From Escherichia coli (GTDB lineage: Bacteria > Pseudomonadota > Gammaproteobacteria > Enterobacterales > Enterobacteriaceae): DNA of 64,000 nucleotides. Shown piece after piece: positions 23,911 through 28,532 of this stretch. The notes below the pieces were generated by a model. The model did not search any database. It had not been told where the DNA came from and worked only from the letters and a program-made list of their open reading frames with translations. Positions within the stretch are counted from its first letter, which is position 1, and each line of letters starts with the position of its first letter. Location: assembly GCF_003334785.1 (NCBI RefSeq), contig NZ_QOWV01000001.1; one strand, written 5' to 3'. The translations under genes and the position numbers were made by a program.

Positions 23911-23912
<2 letters not shown>

Positions 23913-23940
23913 AAAAAAGCCCGTCCAGTGGCGGACGGGC
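23911..23940. terminator. Hairpin terminator at hcxB 3' end (A-run, GC stem)
   Basis: aaaaaaaa then gcccgtcc-agtggc-ggacgggc; orientation of the A/T run suits termination of minus-strand transcripts. Confidence 0.5.
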
Positions 23941-24017
23941 AAACAAGGGTAACATAGGATCAATGAGGGTTAGAGCATATGCGTCTGTCGGCAAACAGAC
24001 AGGGAAATACTTGTGCT

Positions 24018-24137
24018 GGACGTAGCGTAAACGCCTGATCCGTCCAACGGTTCGGATTTTGTAGGCCTGATAAGACGCGGTAGCGTCGCATCAGGCATCT
24101 GTTGCCGGATGCGGCGTAAACGCCTTATCCGTCCTAC
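24018..24137. repeat. REP/BIME cluster between hcxB and ybiJ
   Basis: Three REP-like units including gtaggcctgataagacgcggtagcgtcgcatcaggc and gccggatgcggcgtaaacgccttatccgtcctac. Confidence 0.8.
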
Positions 24138-24140
24138 GAA

Positions 24141-24401
24141 TTACTTATAAATTACCGCAGTACCGCTTAATTTATTGTTGTTGGTGGCGGAAGTGATGCT
24201 GTATCCACTGGCACCGGCTGCCGCGGCTTTCTCAGCCAGTTTCGCTTCCAGGGCATCGAGGGTGGATGCGCCATCGGCAGAAACCACGCCGATTTTATTC
24301 ATGTTCTGTGCCTGGGATGCCGTTACCGGTTCCGCCGCGAACACGCCAAATGACAGAGTTGAAAGAGCCATAGCAGCAACAACAGTATTGATAGTTTTCA
24401 T
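24141..24401 (-). CDS. ybiJ: YbiJ, DUF1471 (YhcN-family) secreted small protein (86 aa)
   Basis: ORF 24141..24401 minus; signal peptide; C-terminus GTAVIYK; paralog of mcbA in this window. Confidence 0.9.
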   Translation of the reverse strand: MKTINTVVAAMALSTLSFGVFAAEPVTASQAQNMNKIGVVSADGASTLDALEAKLAEKAAAAGASGYSITSATNNNKLSGTAVIYK

Positions 24402-24665
24402 AATTAATCTCTCGCAGGTGATTTTTGTATAAGTGACGTTGTTTCGTCGATGTGATGAGTATCACGTTTTTTTACGAGAGATAAAATCGAAGAGAATTGA
24501 CCGCCTTGTTCAAATAAATTGATTGATATCTAACCTACTGATAAACCATTTATTTGTTGTACTTATGAACTTGTTTTATACCGCGTGGCAGTCACAGCAG
24601 CGTTAAAGGCACGGAATGACACGCAAAATACAAATTATACTCGCTATGCATCTCGCCAGTTGTAG

Positions 24666-24932
24666 TTAACGTAACTGGCTGTCTTTCGAACCTCTGCGAT
24701 TATATCCTGTATAAGCTGGTTTTTGTAAATCTTTCTCCTGCTGACAATGAATACATAAGCGCACGCCAGGAATGGCTTCCCGACGGGCCTGCGGGATGGG
24801 GGCACCGCACTCTTCACATTCATCCAGGCTTTCGCCGCGCGGAATTTCACCCCGAGCGCGGGCAATCGCATCTTCAATTGTACTGTTGATCTGTTCGTTG
24901 ACGGCGTCATCGTTAGCCCAACCGGATGCCAT
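24666..24932 (-). CDS. ybiI: YbiI, DksA/TraR-family C4-type zinc-finger protein (88 aa)
   Basis: ORF 24666..24932 minus; CEEC...CIHC zinc-finger motif. Confidence 0.88.
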   Translation of the reverse strand: MASGWANDDAVNEQINSTIEDAIARARGEIPRGESLDECEECGAPIPQARREAIPGVRLCIHCQQEKDLQKPAYTGYNRRGSKDSQLR

Positions 24933-25005
24933 ATCGACCTCCCCATATCAATACTTGTACAGTTAAGTGTAGCTAATCCAGGGACGAACTCGGGCAGTTC
25001 AAGCA

Positions 25006-25683
25006 TCAGATCTCCGACCATTCCCGCAGCAGATTATGATAAAGATTAAGCAGCGACAGGATCTCTTCACTTTCGCCGTAGCGGCTTTTCAGCGACTGAA
25101 TATTGTTGTCCAGTTCAAACAGCATGGCGCGCTTTTTATCATCGCGGATCATCGACTGGATCCACATAAATGATGCCACTCGTACGCCGCGGGTTACGGG
25201 TGTCACGCAATGCAGGCTGCTGGAGGGATACAACACGAGATCGCCTGCCGGGAGTTTTACCCGATGTTGTCCGAAGGTGTCATTAACGACCAGTTCGCCG
25301 CCGTCGTAGCTTTGTGGATCGCTTAAAAACAGCGTGGCAGAAAGGTCAGTACGCATCCAGCCGTTTTGTGGATGGCTGCGTACTGCGCCATCCACATGGA
25401 AACCATAGGTTTCATTGTTCTGATAGCGATTAAACAGCGGCGTGGAAAGGGTACGCGGCAAGGCCGCGGCAAAGAATAAAGCATGTTGGTTAACCGCGTT
25501 CAGCACCTCATTTTGCAGGGCGGCGTATAACGTGCTGCGGGTGTCGACCTGTTGATTGTTCTTAACTTGCGCACCTTGTGCGCCGGTGGTGACGCGTCCA
25601 TCCACCCATTCGGCTTGTTCCAGTTGTTCGCGAAAACGAGCGACGTCCTGTGGCGATAACACGCCGGGAATGTGGTACATCAT
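25006..25683 (-). CDS. ybiX: YbiX, PKHD-type Fe(II)/2-oxoglutarate-dependent hydroxylase (225 aa)
   Basis: ORF 25006..25719 minus; start at ATG 25683 (MMYHIPGVL); HVDG iron-binding motif; 41 nt after fiu stop. Confidence 0.9.
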
Positions 25684-25724
25684 ACAATTTCTCCAAAAAG
25701 TGGGGCCTGCGCCCCACATCTGAA

Positions 25725-28007
25725 TCAGAAATGCATATTGGCTGTGAGCAAGAAGGTTCTTGGCTCGCCCGGGTGATAACGGTAGCCGCTCTTGTTGATT
25801 GAGGCGACGTAATCGGTATCAAACAGGTTGTAAACGTTTAGCTGGAAGTCGAGATTGCGATTAACTCGATACCCCAGTTTGGCATCGGCGACCCAGTAAC
25901 CTTCGGTAAACGCTGGCGTTCCCACCGCGCCGTCTGAACCTTTATGCATACTGCCGATATAGCGTGCGCCCGCGCCAACAGAGATATCGTCGGTTGCCTG
26001 ATATTGGCTCCATAAGGTGAAGGCGTGCTCCGGGGTATACGGCAGCGATGAGGAACCATCCTGGGCAACATCTTTGCCGTTTTTGATGGTTGCTTTTTGC
26101 TGGGTATAGCCGCCAATCACCTGCCACGCGGGAGTGATATTCCCGGCCACGGATATCTCATAGCCTTCGACGCGTTTCTTACCGTATTGCGAGTAAGTTC
26201 CGTCATCATTTTGCTCAACTTCATTTTCGATATCAGTGCGGAACAGCGCGGCGGTGAGCAACAGACGTTTATCCAGAACCTGCCATTTGGTGCCAATCTC
26301 GCTGGTGTTGGCTTTTTGCGGTTTAAAATCGGTGCGGTTGGCACTGTTACCGCTGCCAGACTGCGCAAGGGCGAAGTTGTTGCCGCCCGGAGGCTGCTGG
26401 GAAACGGCATAGTTAATATAGACATTGCCGTTTTCCGTCAGGTGATACAGCGCCCCGGCTTTCCAGTTCATCAGATTGCCCGACTTGGCGGTGTCGACGG
26501 TGGTGACCGGAGAACCTTTTGCCACACCAGTTGGGCAGGTGATGGCACCGCGTCCGCTGCCGCCGCAGGCGGTGGCACTGTCATATTCAGTATGATAATT
26601 ATCCAGACGGATCCCGCCGTTCAGCTCAAAATCACGGGTGATTTGCAGCGTATCAAAGGCGTAAATTGCGAAGGTATCCGTCTGACCATTGGCGTTTGCG
26701 CCGTTGCGCGTCAGGCCGCCGGGATGAATGCTGCTGTCAGGATGATAAATATTTACCGCGGGTAACGTCACCGGATTAACGCCGTAGTTAGTCTGCGTTT
26801 CACGGGTAAATTCCACGCCGGTACTGACATCATGACCGATAGAACCGGTATAGAACGTCGAGGTCAGGTTGGTCTGGTTGGTGAGAATTTTATTACTCAC
26901 ATCTTTGGTATTCGCCGTGCGTGACCAGGTCCAGCTATTCACATCGCTGGTGGGCTGAGTAATATTCGACGCCCCGCCCATAATCGCCGTCATCAGGTAA
27001 TCCTGCTTTACGCGCGACCAACGGGTAGTATTGCGAATGGTGGTGTTATCGTTGATGTCGTGCTCAAAACGCATGGTGGCGGTGTCGGTGGTCGAATCGT
27101 CGTAATCGGAATCCGTGCCGTAAAAGTTATGAGTATCAACTTTTCCGGAATGATTCAGGGCCGCCGTTCCCGCAGATGGGGCAGAATAGCCCGGCAAACC
27201 GATGGTCGGAATGCCGCCGTCTGGCGTGTTGTGCTGGGTGACATGCAGATAATTAAGATACAAACGATTCGCTGTACCAAGGCCAAAAGCGACAGAAGGG
27301 GCGACGCCGTAACGCTCATTTTTGACTTTGTCGCGTCCGGCATCGTGCGTTTTTTCGCCCATTACATTCAGGCGCACCGCGGTGGTATCACCAATGACCT
27401 GATTGACGTCCAGCGTGCCGCGGCGGAACCAGGCGCTGCCAATACTGGCGGAGGCGTCAATGCCGGAATCATTGCGCGGCTGCTTGCTGATCATATTGAT
27501 CGAGCCTGTCGGTGCGCTGCGCCCGTAGTCGGTGCCGGACGGCCCTTTAATCACTTCGACCTGCTCGGTATTGAAGGTGTCGCGCGAGACGCTGCCGATA
27601 TCGCGAATGCCATCAATATAAATACTGTTAGAGGTATCGGCACCACGCATATAAATGGCGTCGCCAGTGGTGGAGTTACCGTTCTCACCCGCAAAAAACG
27701 CACCCACGCCGGGGACGTTTTTGAGCGCGTCGGTAAGGTTGGTTGCGCCCTGATCTTTAATCACTTGTTCAGAAATTACCGTCATCGTGCGGGTAGTATC
27801 CGCTACCGGACGCGAGAATTTCGGATCGGCAGATTGTTGTGGCGCATAAAGCGAAGGCGTTGATGCTTCGACAACCAGCGTGTCATCCGCGTTAGTTTGC
27901 CCTTCGGCGGCGAGTGCCTGAGCCACAGGCGTGATGCCAATACAAAGACCGGCAAAGAACGTGAGCGAATGAAATTGTCTGGCAGGGAAATTGCGATTGT
28001 TTTCCAT
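25725..28007 (-). CDS. fiu: Fiu, TonB-dependent catecholate-siderophore outer-membrane receptor (760 aa)
   Basis: ORF 25725..28007 minus; signal peptide; C-terminal aromatic residue (ANMHF). Confidence 0.95.
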
Positions 28008-28100
28008 TTTGCAGGTGACTTTTTCTTATATGTTGAAATTTTCACTGCCACGAGAAAGCCTCTCTGCGGATGCGATGCCACTGTTAATCCCGTGATAGTG

Positions 28101-28128
28101 ATCGTGAAAGTGATAATAATTTTGATAA
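28101..28128. promoter_or_regulatory. Fur box(es) in fiu promoter
   Basis: tgataataattttgataagcattatcac matches the GATAATGATAATCATTATC consensus, about 100 nt upstream of fiu ATG. Confidence 0.65.
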
Positions 28129-28271
28129 GCATTATCACTTGGAGCGATTTTCTATCACCCATTGCGCGAAAAAGAAATACATTTATTTACATTGAGTTCA
28201 TATTTGATGTTTTTTGATTACAAAACAGACGAAAACTGCATCCAGAGGCGAATGCAGTTACGTTGGTGGGG

Positions 28272-28532
28272 TTATTTGTAGATGGTTGCAGTACCGAACA
28301 TCTGGTCATTTCCGCCTGCGGAATTAATGACATAACCTTTCGCGCCTTGTTCGCGCGCTTTTTCTGCCAGTTTATCCTCCAGATCGCTTAGGTTTGATGC
28401 GCCAGTTGCCGAAACGGTACCGGCGGGCCGTAGCTGACCGCTGTCCAGGTTACTCATCGGTTGCGCGGCATAAGCCGTGAGAGAGATTCCGCTCAGGACG
28501 GTGGCAATCAGTAGTGTGAGGCACTTTTTCAT
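28272..28532 (-). CDS. mcbA: McbA (YbiM), DUF1471 secreted small protein linked to colanic acid/biofilm control (86 aa)
   Basis: ORF 28272..28676 minus; start at internal ATG 28532 (MKKCLTLLIA); signal peptide; C-terminus GTATIYK. Confidence 0.88.
   Translation of the reverse strand: MKKCLTLLIATVLSGISLTAYAAQPMSNLDSGQLRPAGTVSATGASNLSDLEDKLAEKAREQGAKGYVINSAGGNDQMFGTATIYK

Follow-up and report, generated by a model that had tools for sequence, protein, structure and literature searches.

A probable leaky intrinsic terminator separates the catecholate receptor gene fiu from the oxygenase gene ybiX in an iron-repressed Escherichia coli operon

Bacterial receptor genes paired with oxygenase genes have been described in several species. 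In the CciT-CciO pair of Caulobacter crescentus (PMC12004947, PMC12004943), a gene for a PKHD-type Fe(II)/2OG oxygenase comes after, and shares the strand of, the gene for a Fur-regulated TonB-dependent receptor, and both papers, published in 2025, name Fiu-YbiX as the E. coli counterpart and describe the co-conservation of Fiu-YbiX, PiuA-PiuC and CciT-CciO. The published figure for receptor-oxygenase adjacency is 87.7%. CciT function depends on CciO, CciT protein is still made when CciO is absent, and the catalytic histidines are required, as CciO variants H98A and H161A fail to complement. Both systems have an RNA element between receptor gene and oxygenase gene, an annotated sRNA (CCNA_R0097) in Caulobacter and a terminator hairpin in fiu-ybiX. 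Unlike Fiu, CciT does not import cefiderocol, Caulobacter has no known siderophore, and the E. coli locus adds a third gene, ybiI; our literature search found no ybiX growth phenotype comparable to that of cciO. In the PiuA/PiuD-PiuC system of Pseudomonas aeruginosa, a Sel1-repeat gene stands after piuC where a zinc-finger gene stands after ybiX, and the effect of piuC is visible in a single mutant whereas that of ybiX is masked by CirA.

We analyzed a 64,000-nucleotide stretch of E. coli chromosomal DNA (the window) containing the well-known iron-repressed fiu-ybiX(-ybiI) operon, whose layout and regulation have been annotated and published previously. Our additions to published work are a conserved and probably leaky terminator between fiu and ybiX, the targeting of this element by IS421, and an FMN alpha-hydroxy-acid dehydrogenase as third gene outside Enterobacterales. 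All three proteins match NCBIfam equivalogs: Fiu, which imports monomeric and dimeric catecholates in a TonB-dependent manner, matches NF007349 over residues 1-760 of 760 (1507.6 bits, where 686 would suffice), YbiX matches NF003972 (520 bits against 399) and YbiI matches NF008243 (160.5 bits against 96). The 41 nt that a preliminary description of this DNA had counted between the fiu stop codon and the ybiX ATG are exact (25724..25684), with all genes on the minus strand, and its assignment of the downstream gene ybiI to the DksA/TraR-type zinc finger proteins agrees with the profile score; ybiI begins 73 nt past ybiX (Table 1). A longer ybiX reading frame begins at 25719, upstream of the annotated start. 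The fiu-ybiX-ybiI region is carried by 5422 of 5426 complete E. coli genomes.

Table 1. Coordinates of genes and regulatory features at the fiu-ybiX-ybiI locus, numbered along the window.
Feature	Position	Strand	Details
Fur box	28111-28138	+	tgataataattttgataagcattatcac, as read on the plus strand, 104-131 nt upstream of the fiu ATG; the box serving minus-strand fiu is 28111-28137, 104-130 nt upstream
Predicted fiu sigma-70 promoter	28131..28158	-	-35 GTGATA (28158-28153), 16-nt spacer, -10 GATAAT (28136-28131)
fiu	28007..25725	-	760 aa; stop TGA at 25727-25725; TonB-dependent outer-membrane catecholate receptor
Leaky intrinsic terminator	25695..25717	-	Stem GTGGGGC (25717-25711), loop GCAG, stem GCCCCAC (25706-25700), UUUUU (25699-25695)
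ybiX (as annotated)	25683..25006	-	225 aa; N-terminus MMYHIPG
Possible second Fur-like site (weak)	25032..25050	+	GATTATGATAAAGATTAAG; 14/19; inside the coding 3' end of ybiX
ybiI	24932..24666	-	88 aa; 73 nt past ybiX
ybiI transcript 3' end	24643..24679	-	Hairpin 24679-24655 spanning the ybiI stop codon; RNA 3' end at 24643

A Fur-box-like sequence had been proposed about 100 nt upstream of fiu, and motif scans recovered it at the expected distance. The box contains two overlapping 7-1-7 motifs with 2 and 1 mismatches; across the entire 64 kb, the 7-1-7 scan returned 5 matches where 0.25 were expected. Against the 19-mer consensus it matches at 15 of 19 positions, placing it within the best 2 of 246 window tiles in a ranked mismatch scan. 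A strict search for the 19-mer with at most 3 mismatches gave no match anywhere in the window, the fiu box having 4. At all enterobacterial loci, a comparable match (2-5 mismatches) precedes the receptor gene, mostly about 120-135 nt ahead of the start of the receptor reading frame. The box overlaps the -10 hexamer of the predicted fiu promoter, a call made from consensus match only (9 of 12 hexamer positions), and this arrangement would fit repression through promoter occlusion.

Published data place Fur on this box and show its effect on all three genes. ChIP-exo peaks coincide with it under the names 'fiu-ybiX' in MG1655 and 'fiu,ybiX,ybiI' in W3110 and W (PMC10164565), and peak P24 'fiu-ybiX' from the supplement of that study converts to window positions 28122-28146. 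Deletion of fur raised fiu about 44-fold, ybiX about 37-fold and ybiI about 8-fold (log2 5.47, 5.21 and 3.04) and left the upstream gene mcbA unaltered (PMC10164565). In TPM, the unit given in the Methods of the same paper, wild-type and deletion replicates read 40/36 and 1862/1665 for fiu (means 38 and 1763), 9.8/10.0 and 387/374 for ybiX, and 20/24 and 191/179 for ybiI (PMC10164565). The three genes also share the Fur-1 iModulon. Co-transcription of fiu and ybiX under iron repression, as first suggested from gene spacing and the Fur box, is thus supported by the ChIP-exo peaks, the derepression of ybiX, the constant fiu:ybiX ratio of about 4:1 and the shared iModulon.

The third gene, ybiI, encodes a DksA/TraR-type C4 zinc finger (C39, C42, C60 and C63, spaced CxxC-N17-CxxC) and is the third member of the Fur-controlled unit, probably with an additional promoter of its own. 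In W3110 and W it has been placed in one transcription unit with fiu and ybiX (PMC10164565), and a sigma-S SELEX peak is located in the ybiX-ybiI spacer. The possible second Fur-like site lies 100-118 nt upstream of the ybiI ATG and differs from the 19-mer at 5 positions, a score that no more than 6 of 246 window tiles equal or better. At the far end, a Term-seq 3' end at K-12 position 838167, entered twice in the supplement, corresponds to the end of the ybiI transcript, and our plus-strand scan detected an inverted repeat there. ybiI occurs only in part of Enterobacteriaceae, being missing from Kluyvera, Pantoea, Serratia, Rouxiella, Tatumella and all distant loci.

Leaky intrinsic terminators inside operons are an established means of setting gene ratios in E. 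coli. The 41-nt spacer between fiu and ybiX is most probably such an intrinsic terminator rather than a neutral linker, and read-through would give ybiX about a fifth of the expression that fiu reaches. A terminator scan identified a stem of 7 bp (6 of them GC) that is closed by a 4-nt loop and runs into UUUUU, and the hairpin folds at -19.3 kcal/mol (z -3.95, 0 of 200 shuffles). A published Term-seq 3' end assigned as primary for fiu (K-12 839219) corresponds to window position 25695, the last U of the tract, and TPM falls 4-6-fold across the hairpin (PMC10164565), observations that fit termination, exonucleolytic trimming or differential decay alike. The fiu:ybiX ratio is equal in repressed and derepressed cells, which argues for read-through and not for a second promoter, and we found no iron-independent promoter for ybiX. 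As in other leaky intra-operon terminators, a GC-rich hairpin and U-tract lie between co-regulated genes, a 3' end maps to the element, and expression drops across it by a constant factor. The fiu-ybiX element differs in that its U-tract directly abuts the ybiX Shine-Dalgarno sequence (GGAG, 25694-25691), in being found order-wide with a changing stem, and in that its termination efficiency is estimated indirectly.

In every one of the 43 enterobacterial junctions, per-sequence calls gave a hairpin 14-22 nt ahead of the ATG; its stem is lineage-specific and takes at least 8 different sequences. RNAalifold on a MAFFT alignment of the spacers recovered only 4 pairs, with lineages out of register, so that this conservation is stated as counts of calls and carries no covariation statistic; no Rfam family covers the hairpin. 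The element could instead be a 3'-exonuclease barrier or processing site that stabilizes the fiu portion of a full-length fiu-ybiX-ybiI RNA, making the step-down post-transcriptional. Term-seq reads the same whether a transcript terminates or is trimmed as far as a hairpin, the 8 nt past the stem hold only 1-3 T in many loci of Citrobacter and Leclercia, and Pseudocitrobacter carries REP-type hairpins in place of the terminator. We nevertheless consider a barrier of this kind unlikely, as the stem, tetraloop, five U and 3' end on the last U make the E. coli element a canonical intrinsic terminator, and GC hairpins with a T-run behind them stand at the same position in distant loci, about 10 of which have a hairpin before the ATG. 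Separately, the bases just 3' of the fiu stop codon pair with the ybiX Shine-Dalgarno sequence in E. coli. An anti-Shine-Dalgarno helix mediating translational coupling was considered and rejected: the pairing probability is 0.69 in E. coli, but the mean across 38 relatives is 0.28 compared to 0.33 for shuffled flanks.

The terminator is also a landing site for mobile elements: 29 complete E. coli genomes, among them those of strains O157:H16 98-3133 and LAU-OXA, carry IS421 inside the hairpin. Insertion of an IS between the two genes has been reported to give the phenotype of a ybiX defect, which further supports co-transcription of the two genes. That the terminator fills the 41-nt spacer explains why insertions there are ybiX-null in phenotype.

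YbiX belongs to the PiuC/CciO family of Fe(II)/2OG hydroxylases and is cytoplasmic. The HVDG motif noted in the preliminary description reads H96-V97-D98-G99, and H158 and R168 complete the 2OG-oxygenase signature: H96, D98 and H158 form the facial triad and R168 binds the 2OG C5 carboxylate. Each of the four residues is invariant or at least 90% conserved across 88 diverse members. Family profile scores and a double-stranded beta-helix fold both place the protein here, with Pfam domains PF13640 and PF18331 (the latter a C-terminal two-helix PKHD_C), an AF2 model at pLDDT 97.4, and structural counterparts in PDB 3DKQ and the PiuC entries 9GHL and 9QN0-4. No signal peptide was seen on inspection of the N-terminus. 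Family members P0086, P0149, P0110 and P0142 look like fusion proteins but were set aside, their extensions being low-complexity or frameshift-like and not true domains. PiuC has been crystallized with 2OG and Fe, and the deposited complexes contain only malate, 2,4-PDCA or 2OG.

Loss of the oxygenase has a phenotype, and the genetic requirement extends to three species. In PAO1, deletion of piuC increased the MIC of cefiderocol from 0.125 to 2 mg/L across three independent constructs and left other beta-lactams unaltered. One preprint reports a shift of the same kind in E. coli lacking both cirA and ybiX; the single ybiX deletion leaves the MIC unchanged, the effect needing the absence of cirA. 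A mutant with a nonsense codon in ybiX resists a catechol-PNA conjugate. On the only contig found, which starts at piuC, that gene appears to be transcribed away from piuA, so a piuC deletion should be non-polar on piuA; a claim that piuC affects piuA expression reaches us second-hand, through a citing paper.

What YbiX acts on was first proposed from its neighbor: an oxygenase in the transcript of a catecholate importer might modify the imported cargo. Cytoplasmic YbiX would then hydroxylate or degrade Fiu-imported catecholate for iron release, detoxification or maintenance of an import gradient, a model discussed in both Caulobacter papers (PMC12004947, PMC12004943). The older proposal for PiuC was the same. 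The shared iron-repressed transcript and tight co-conservation speak for it, as does the catechol-PNA resistance, the target of that conjugate being cytoplasmic. The phenotypes fit it poorly. Cefiderocol acts in the periplasm and needs the outer-membrane step alone, yet its MIC goes up as far upon loss of piuC or ybiX as upon loss of the receptor; catechol beta-lactams never reach the cytoplasm, which leaves processing of imported cargo by YbiX poorly supported. The Caulobacter pair works in defined medium with FeCl3 and no added siderophore, catechol supplementation did not fit the model, and CciT is made without CciO. At 22 of the 33 distant loci that are informative, the gene immediately after that for the oxygenase encodes an FMN alpha-hydroxy-acid dehydrogenase, the usual third gene outside Enterobacterales; it suggests a short small-molecule pathway and would fit cytoplasmic catabolism of an imported compound. 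Against this, many partner clusters contain PepSY and cytochrome b-type genes, which imply periplasmic iron release, and the oxygenase is far better conserved than the receptor, which would be odd for an enzyme tracking a variable cargo. We therefore regard an imported catecholate as the less likely substrate and cargo processing as doubtful. (A Zoogloea reading frame that seemed to fuse the oxygenase to the FMN dehydrogenase proved to be in a different frame, an ORF-calling artefact.)

The pairing itself is robust. A same-strand receptor gene lies upstream of the oxygenase gene within 1.4 kb at 79 of 80 loci, with a gap of at most 100 nt at 75, and the arrangement persists even at loci where receptor identity to Fiu is as low as 22-30% and the oxygenase is about 50% identical. 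Some distant members of the oxygenase family have a gene context lacking a receptor gene.

Dependence between the partners could also run the other way: the main role of Fiu-type receptors would be to provide iron for the metalation of YbiX, and the shared phenotypes would come from some unrelated activity of the enzyme. This is model B of the Caulobacter copper paper. Receptor and oxygenase mutants are both copper-sensitive, and one Caulobacter study found CciO dispensable for cellular Fe and Cu content, at odds with the other. Such a scheme fails to explain why piuC or ybiX mutants resist drugs that use a still-present receptor, and E. coli has many other iron routes able to metalate a cytoplasmic enzyme; we judge it very improbable.

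We favor, as probable, an account in which a Fur-repressed operon with a leaky spacer terminator supplies YbiX, which is needed for the Fiu uptake pathway. When iron is present, Fe(II)-Fur occupies the box overlapping the predicted fiu -10; when iron is absent, fiu is transcribed. Most transcripts would end at the spacer terminator, about a fifth to a quarter would continue into ybiX and about half of those would extend into ybiI, giving a Fiu:YbiX:YbiI ratio of about 5:1:0.5. YbiX catalysis would then be needed for the cognate receptor pathway at or before the outer-membrane step, and from this we infer that the enzyme most likely acts on a substrate made by the cell. Candidates would be a metabolite (the receptor ligand or a compound that blocks it) or a protein. 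Gene order, Fur binding and derepression, the mapped 3' end with its step-down, the fold with its catalytic residues and the genetic requirement are established by data; which partner depends on the other, and that the substrate is endogenous, are inferences.

For the protein alternative, a more specific idea, to which we give little credence, is that YbiX/PiuC/CciO hydroxylates a receptor precursor or a TonB-ExbBD component in the cytoplasm and so licenses it before export. If true, this would account for the need for a cytoplasmic enzyme when drugs that act in the periplasm enter, for a phenotype that pooled screens show to be cell-autonomous, for a receptor that is present yet inactive when the oxygenase is absent, for the place of the enzyme gene right after the receptor gene, for the closeness of the fold to protein prolyl hydroxylases, and for the additional Sel1/TPR-type partner in Pseudomonas. 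In a fold search, the nearest characterized folds to YbiX are protein prolyl hydroxylases, including P. putida PPHD (which acts on EF-Tu), animal PHD2, Dictyostelium PhyA, OGFOD1/Tpa1, and viral and algal P4H. The N-terminal regions of 38 partnered receptors, compared without an outgroup, contain no invariant proline. With neither such a proline nor a defined substrate, we do not class YbiX as a prolyl hydroxylase. K63 is invariant in all 38; we take this and most other invariant receptor residues to be generic for TonB-dependent or siderophore receptors, and in a comparison lacking an outgroup such residues do not separate a modification site from a ligand site.

Cefiderocol and other catechol 'Trojan horse' antibiotics enter through Fiu and its relatives PiuA and PiuD. 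In P. aeruginosa, loss of the neighboring oxygenase is a recurrent clinical route to resistance; in E. coli, the same route has now been seen experimentally. The role of the oxygenase was posed as an explicit question by several groups in 2025-26, with structures deposited without substrate, and the FMN alpha-hydroxy-acid dehydrogenase partner offers a concrete lead toward the substrate of the YbiX family. The conserved leaky terminator offers a mechanism for setting the dosage of ybiX, and in the 29 E. coli strains that carry IS421 in it, the Fiu pathway is predicted to be weakened.

Aligned to K-12 (NC_000913.3 coordinate minus 813524 gives the window coordinate), the fiu-ybiX region follows the gene order ybiJ-ybiI-ybiX-fiu-mcbA, and the 4.4 kb around the pair has a match in 5422 of the 5426 complete E. 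coli genomes, with 100% identity in many of them. NCBIfam equivalog models back the identities of fiu, ybiX and ybiI with scores well over the cut-offs. We measured the same 41 nt from the fiu stop to the ybiX ATG as the preliminary description had given; a longer ybiX ORF from 25719 is present, differing from the annotated start, and ybiX and ybiI are 73 nt apart. The operon is flanked on the same strand by ybiJ and mcbA, paralogous genes for 86-aa DUF1471 periplasmic proteins. The fiu-ybiX(-ybiI) observation is correct, well above chance, and concerns a textbook Fur operon that was already known and whose receptor-oxygenase partnership was published in 2025.

Coordinates of features in the window and in related loci compared with it (L-numbers)
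Feature	Position	Strand	Remark
mcbA	28272-28532	minus
Fur ChIP-exo peak, MG1655	28122-28146		converted coordinate
Fur box upstream of fiu	28111-28138	plus
fiu	28007..25725	minus
Internal 3' end in fiu	27930		K-12 841454; 77 nt into ORF
Spacer terminator	25717..25695	minus
Hairpin insertions	25700-25717; L087:1485-2874; L003 and L004 spacers
Primary 3' end of fiu	25695	minus	K-12 839219(-)
ybiX	25683..25006	minus	annotated start MMYHIPG
Internal 3' end in ybiX	25339		K-12 838863; adjoins imperfect inverted repeat
Fur-consensus match, 14/19	25032-25050		within ybiX 3' end
RpoS-holoenzyme site	24933-25005		ybiX-ybiI spacer
ybiI	24932..24666	minus
ybiJ	24141-24401	minus
naRNA4 element	24064-24134		REP-derived; Rfam RF02564, 78 bits; downstream of ybiJ
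sRNA ZbiJ	23911-24007		annotated in K-12; equivalent position
FMN dehydrogenase/oxidase gene	L050:6693-7793; L053:6685-7785		and 20 other loci among L048-L081

The Fur-box-like sequence previously noted upstream of fiu consists of two overlapping 7-1-7 Fur motifs, a motif with five matches at two or fewer mismatches in the 64-kb window versus 0.25 expected. It agrees with the classical 19-mer at 15 of 19 positions, among the best 2 of 246 window tiles, and overlaps the -10 hexamer of the sole promoter-like site predicted upstream of fiu on the same strand. All enterobacterial relatives carry a Fur match with 2-5 mismatches upstream of the receptor gene, mostly about 120-135 nt ahead of where the ORF starts. 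Published ChIP-exo data (PMC10164565) attribute Fur peaks to 'fiu-ybiX' in MG1655 and, for W3110 and W, to 'fiu, ybiX, ybiI'; we converted the MG1655 peak with a genome-version offset of +777, verified against an independent coordinate. In the same source, whose Methods give expression in TPM, fur deletion raised fiu from 40/36 to 1862/1665, ybiX from 9.8/10.0 to 387/374 and ybiI from 20/24 to 191/179, and expression of mcbA, upstream of fiu, was the same in both strains. A 2.4-fold rise of ybiJ (29/33 to 82/69) possibly reflects read-through past ybiI. Members of the Fur-1 iModulon include fiu, ybiX and ybiI. The published peaks, TPM values and iModulon therefore run counter to an iron-independent ybiX promoter, and iron regulation of fiu-ybiX is settled by these data. 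The proposed co-transcription under iron repression holds as to regulation and needs one qualification, namely that a probable leaky terminator separates fiu from ybiX.

A terminator scan found GTGGGGC-GCAG-GCCCCAC followed by TTTTT in this spacer, with the T-run abutting the ybiX Shine-Dalgarno GGAG. The predicted RNA fold has -19.3 kcal/mol (z -3.95), and none of 200 shuffles was equally stable. The last U of the tract coincides with the Term-seq end classed as primary for fiu by Adams et al. (eLife 2021, supplement), whose printed flanking sequence matches the window exactly; from where this entry stands in the file, we infer that it comes from the third data set, M63 glucose. In the PMC10164565 data, the drop in TPM from fiu to ybiX is 3.9-fold in wild-type MG1655, 4.6-fold in its fur deletion and 5.9-fold in W3110 lacking fur. 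Trimming combined with differential decay could produce the same 3' end and TPM drop in place of termination, and the Term-seq and TPM data are compatible with it; we read the 41-nt spacer as a leaky terminator. Because the fiu:ybiX ratio is constant over a 40-fold expression range, the data argue for ybiX expression by read-through from the fiu promoter rather than from a separate one. Two further Term-seq 3' ends, listed as 'internal', lie within fiu and ybiX and could represent premature termination, sRNA-linked regulation or decay intermediates.

Additional signals surround ybiI. A Fur-consensus match lies 100-118 nt upstream of its ATG, published genomic SELEX places an RpoS-holoenzyme site before it, and a strong Term-seq 3' end is given for it in two listings of the Adams et al. 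supplement. Together these make it probable that ybiI has its own promoter besides read-through.

We then scanned conservation with one genome per species, covering 80 loci (46 Enterobacterales, 34 other Proteobacteria plus one Aliarcobacter) through E. coli peptide patterns, which biases the distant sample towards Betaproteobacteria. In 79 of 80 loci the oxygenase gene has a TonB-dependent receptor gene upstream of it on the same strand, in 75 of them within 100 nt, and the pairing persists where the receptor is 22-30% identical to Fiu and the oxygenase near 50%. This agrees with the published 87.7% of CciO-type genes adjoining a CciT-type gene. Exceptions to the pairing are Tatumella sp. JGM91, which retains ybiX with no receptor gene upstream, and Citrobacter sp. 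Awk 4, in which fiu is a 42-codon remnant and ybiX is disrupted. Among the 80 loci, ybiI is limited to part of the Enterobacteriaceae.

All 43 enterobacterial junctions of 40-80 nt contain a GC-rich hairpin with its base 14-22 nt before the ybiX ATG. Its stem is GTGGGGC in Escherichia, Citrobacter and Kluyvera, GCGGGGCG in Klebsiella and Raoultella, and CGTGGGGC in Serratia and Rouxiella; Tatumella has three unrelated stems and Pseudocitrobacter REP-type hairpins. A GC hairpin with a T-run stands at the same place in about ten distant loci; the remaining distant loci have 6-25 nt gaps and lack a hairpin. The corresponding place in Caulobacter holds an annotated sRNA gene, whose deletion is without phenotype.

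The best full-length matches to the region held an extra 1.35 kb. In O157:H16 98-3133 this is IS421 (IS4 family), inserted within the hairpin with a 12-bp duplication, GGGCGCAGGCCC; 29 of the 5426 complete E. coli genomes share the exact junction. The intact 241-nt junction is absent from 99 genomes, some with an insertion of ~174 nt, and in two other Escherichia species the hairpin loop is interrupted by a REP-like insertion of 171 nt. Taken with a laboratory insertion of ISKpn8, these natural cases show the hairpin to be a repeated target of insertions, which uncouple ybiX from the fiu promoter. We predict that strains with such insertions under-express ybiX.

YbiX contains the Pfam domains 2OG-FeII_Oxy_3 (residues 84-176) and PKHD_C (182-224), and the HVDG motif reported earlier is H96-V97-D98-G99. 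At E <= 1e-30 the family is large and uniform, with 500 clusters (50% identity) of proteins that are almost all about 225 aa long. Across 88 diverse members the triad H96, D98 and H158 and the 2OG-binding R168 are invariant or at least 90% conserved, as are K41, N43, R111, D113, T117, Y126, W174, S177, R185 and R220. Structures have been solved for the relatives Shewanella Sbal_3634 (3DKQ) and P. aeruginosa PiuC (9GHL, 9QN0-9QN4); the PiuC entries, released August 2025 to April 2026, contain malate, 2,4-PDCA/Mn or 2OG/Fe and no prime substrate. Protein prolyl hydroxylases come next among the matches: Trichoplax PHD (16.7), P. putida PPHD with EF-Tu (16.4), Dictyostelium PhyA (15.9), OGFOD1 (15.0), PHD2 (14.6) and Tpa1 (14.4). 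The fold thus somewhat favours protein hydroxylases, without deciding the question.

In loci from outside Enterobacterales, the cluster typically reads [TonB-ExbB-ExbD]-receptor-oxygenase, with tonB-exbB-exbD often before the receptor gene. Directly 3' of the oxygenase gene, 22 of 33 informative loci encode a member of the FMN-dependent alpha-hydroxy-acid dehydrogenase/oxidase family; its gene starts no more than about 20 nt from the oxygenase stop and is often followed by PepSY and cytochrome b-type genes. The enzyme resembles LldD, lactate oxidase and MftD, scoring under their equivalog cut-offs. Published neighbourhood analyses name PepSY-TM and Sel1 partners, and neither these analyses nor the two papers of 2025 describing the pair (PMC12004947, PMC12004943) mention the FMN enzyme. 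One distant family member (37% identity) has no receptor gene close by; its neighbours are other 2OG oxygenases, a tryptophan halogenase and glycosyl- and methyltransferases.

By inspection, the YbiX N-terminus has no signal peptide; the protein is therefore cytoplasmic, matching the description of CciO. Cefiderocol selection in E. coli yielded an IS insertion in the fiu-ybiX spacer, the delta-cirA delta-ybiX strain has a higher MIC than delta-cirA alone, and a ybiX nonsense mutation gave resistance to a catechol-PNA conjugate. On a P. aeruginosa contig beginning at piuC, a Sel1 gene follows on the same strand; piuC is therefore transcribed away from piuA, and its loss is not polar on piuA. 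In one Caulobacter study CciT function depended strictly on CciO, CciT protein was still made without it, and the pair worked in defined medium; another found that the CciO catalytic histidines are needed and that CciO has no role in Fe or Cu content. Outer-membrane transport suffices for cefiderocol, so a cytoplasmic enzyme acting solely on imported cargo should not matter for this drug. Modification of imported catecholate by YbiX, as first suggested, is the least supported of current models. With moderate confidence, we place the oxygenase upstream of, or at, the receptor step, acting on a cell-made substrate, either a metabolite or a protein. The fiu-ybiX observation does not itself advance the answer to what YbiX acts on, a question that is real and clinically relevant.
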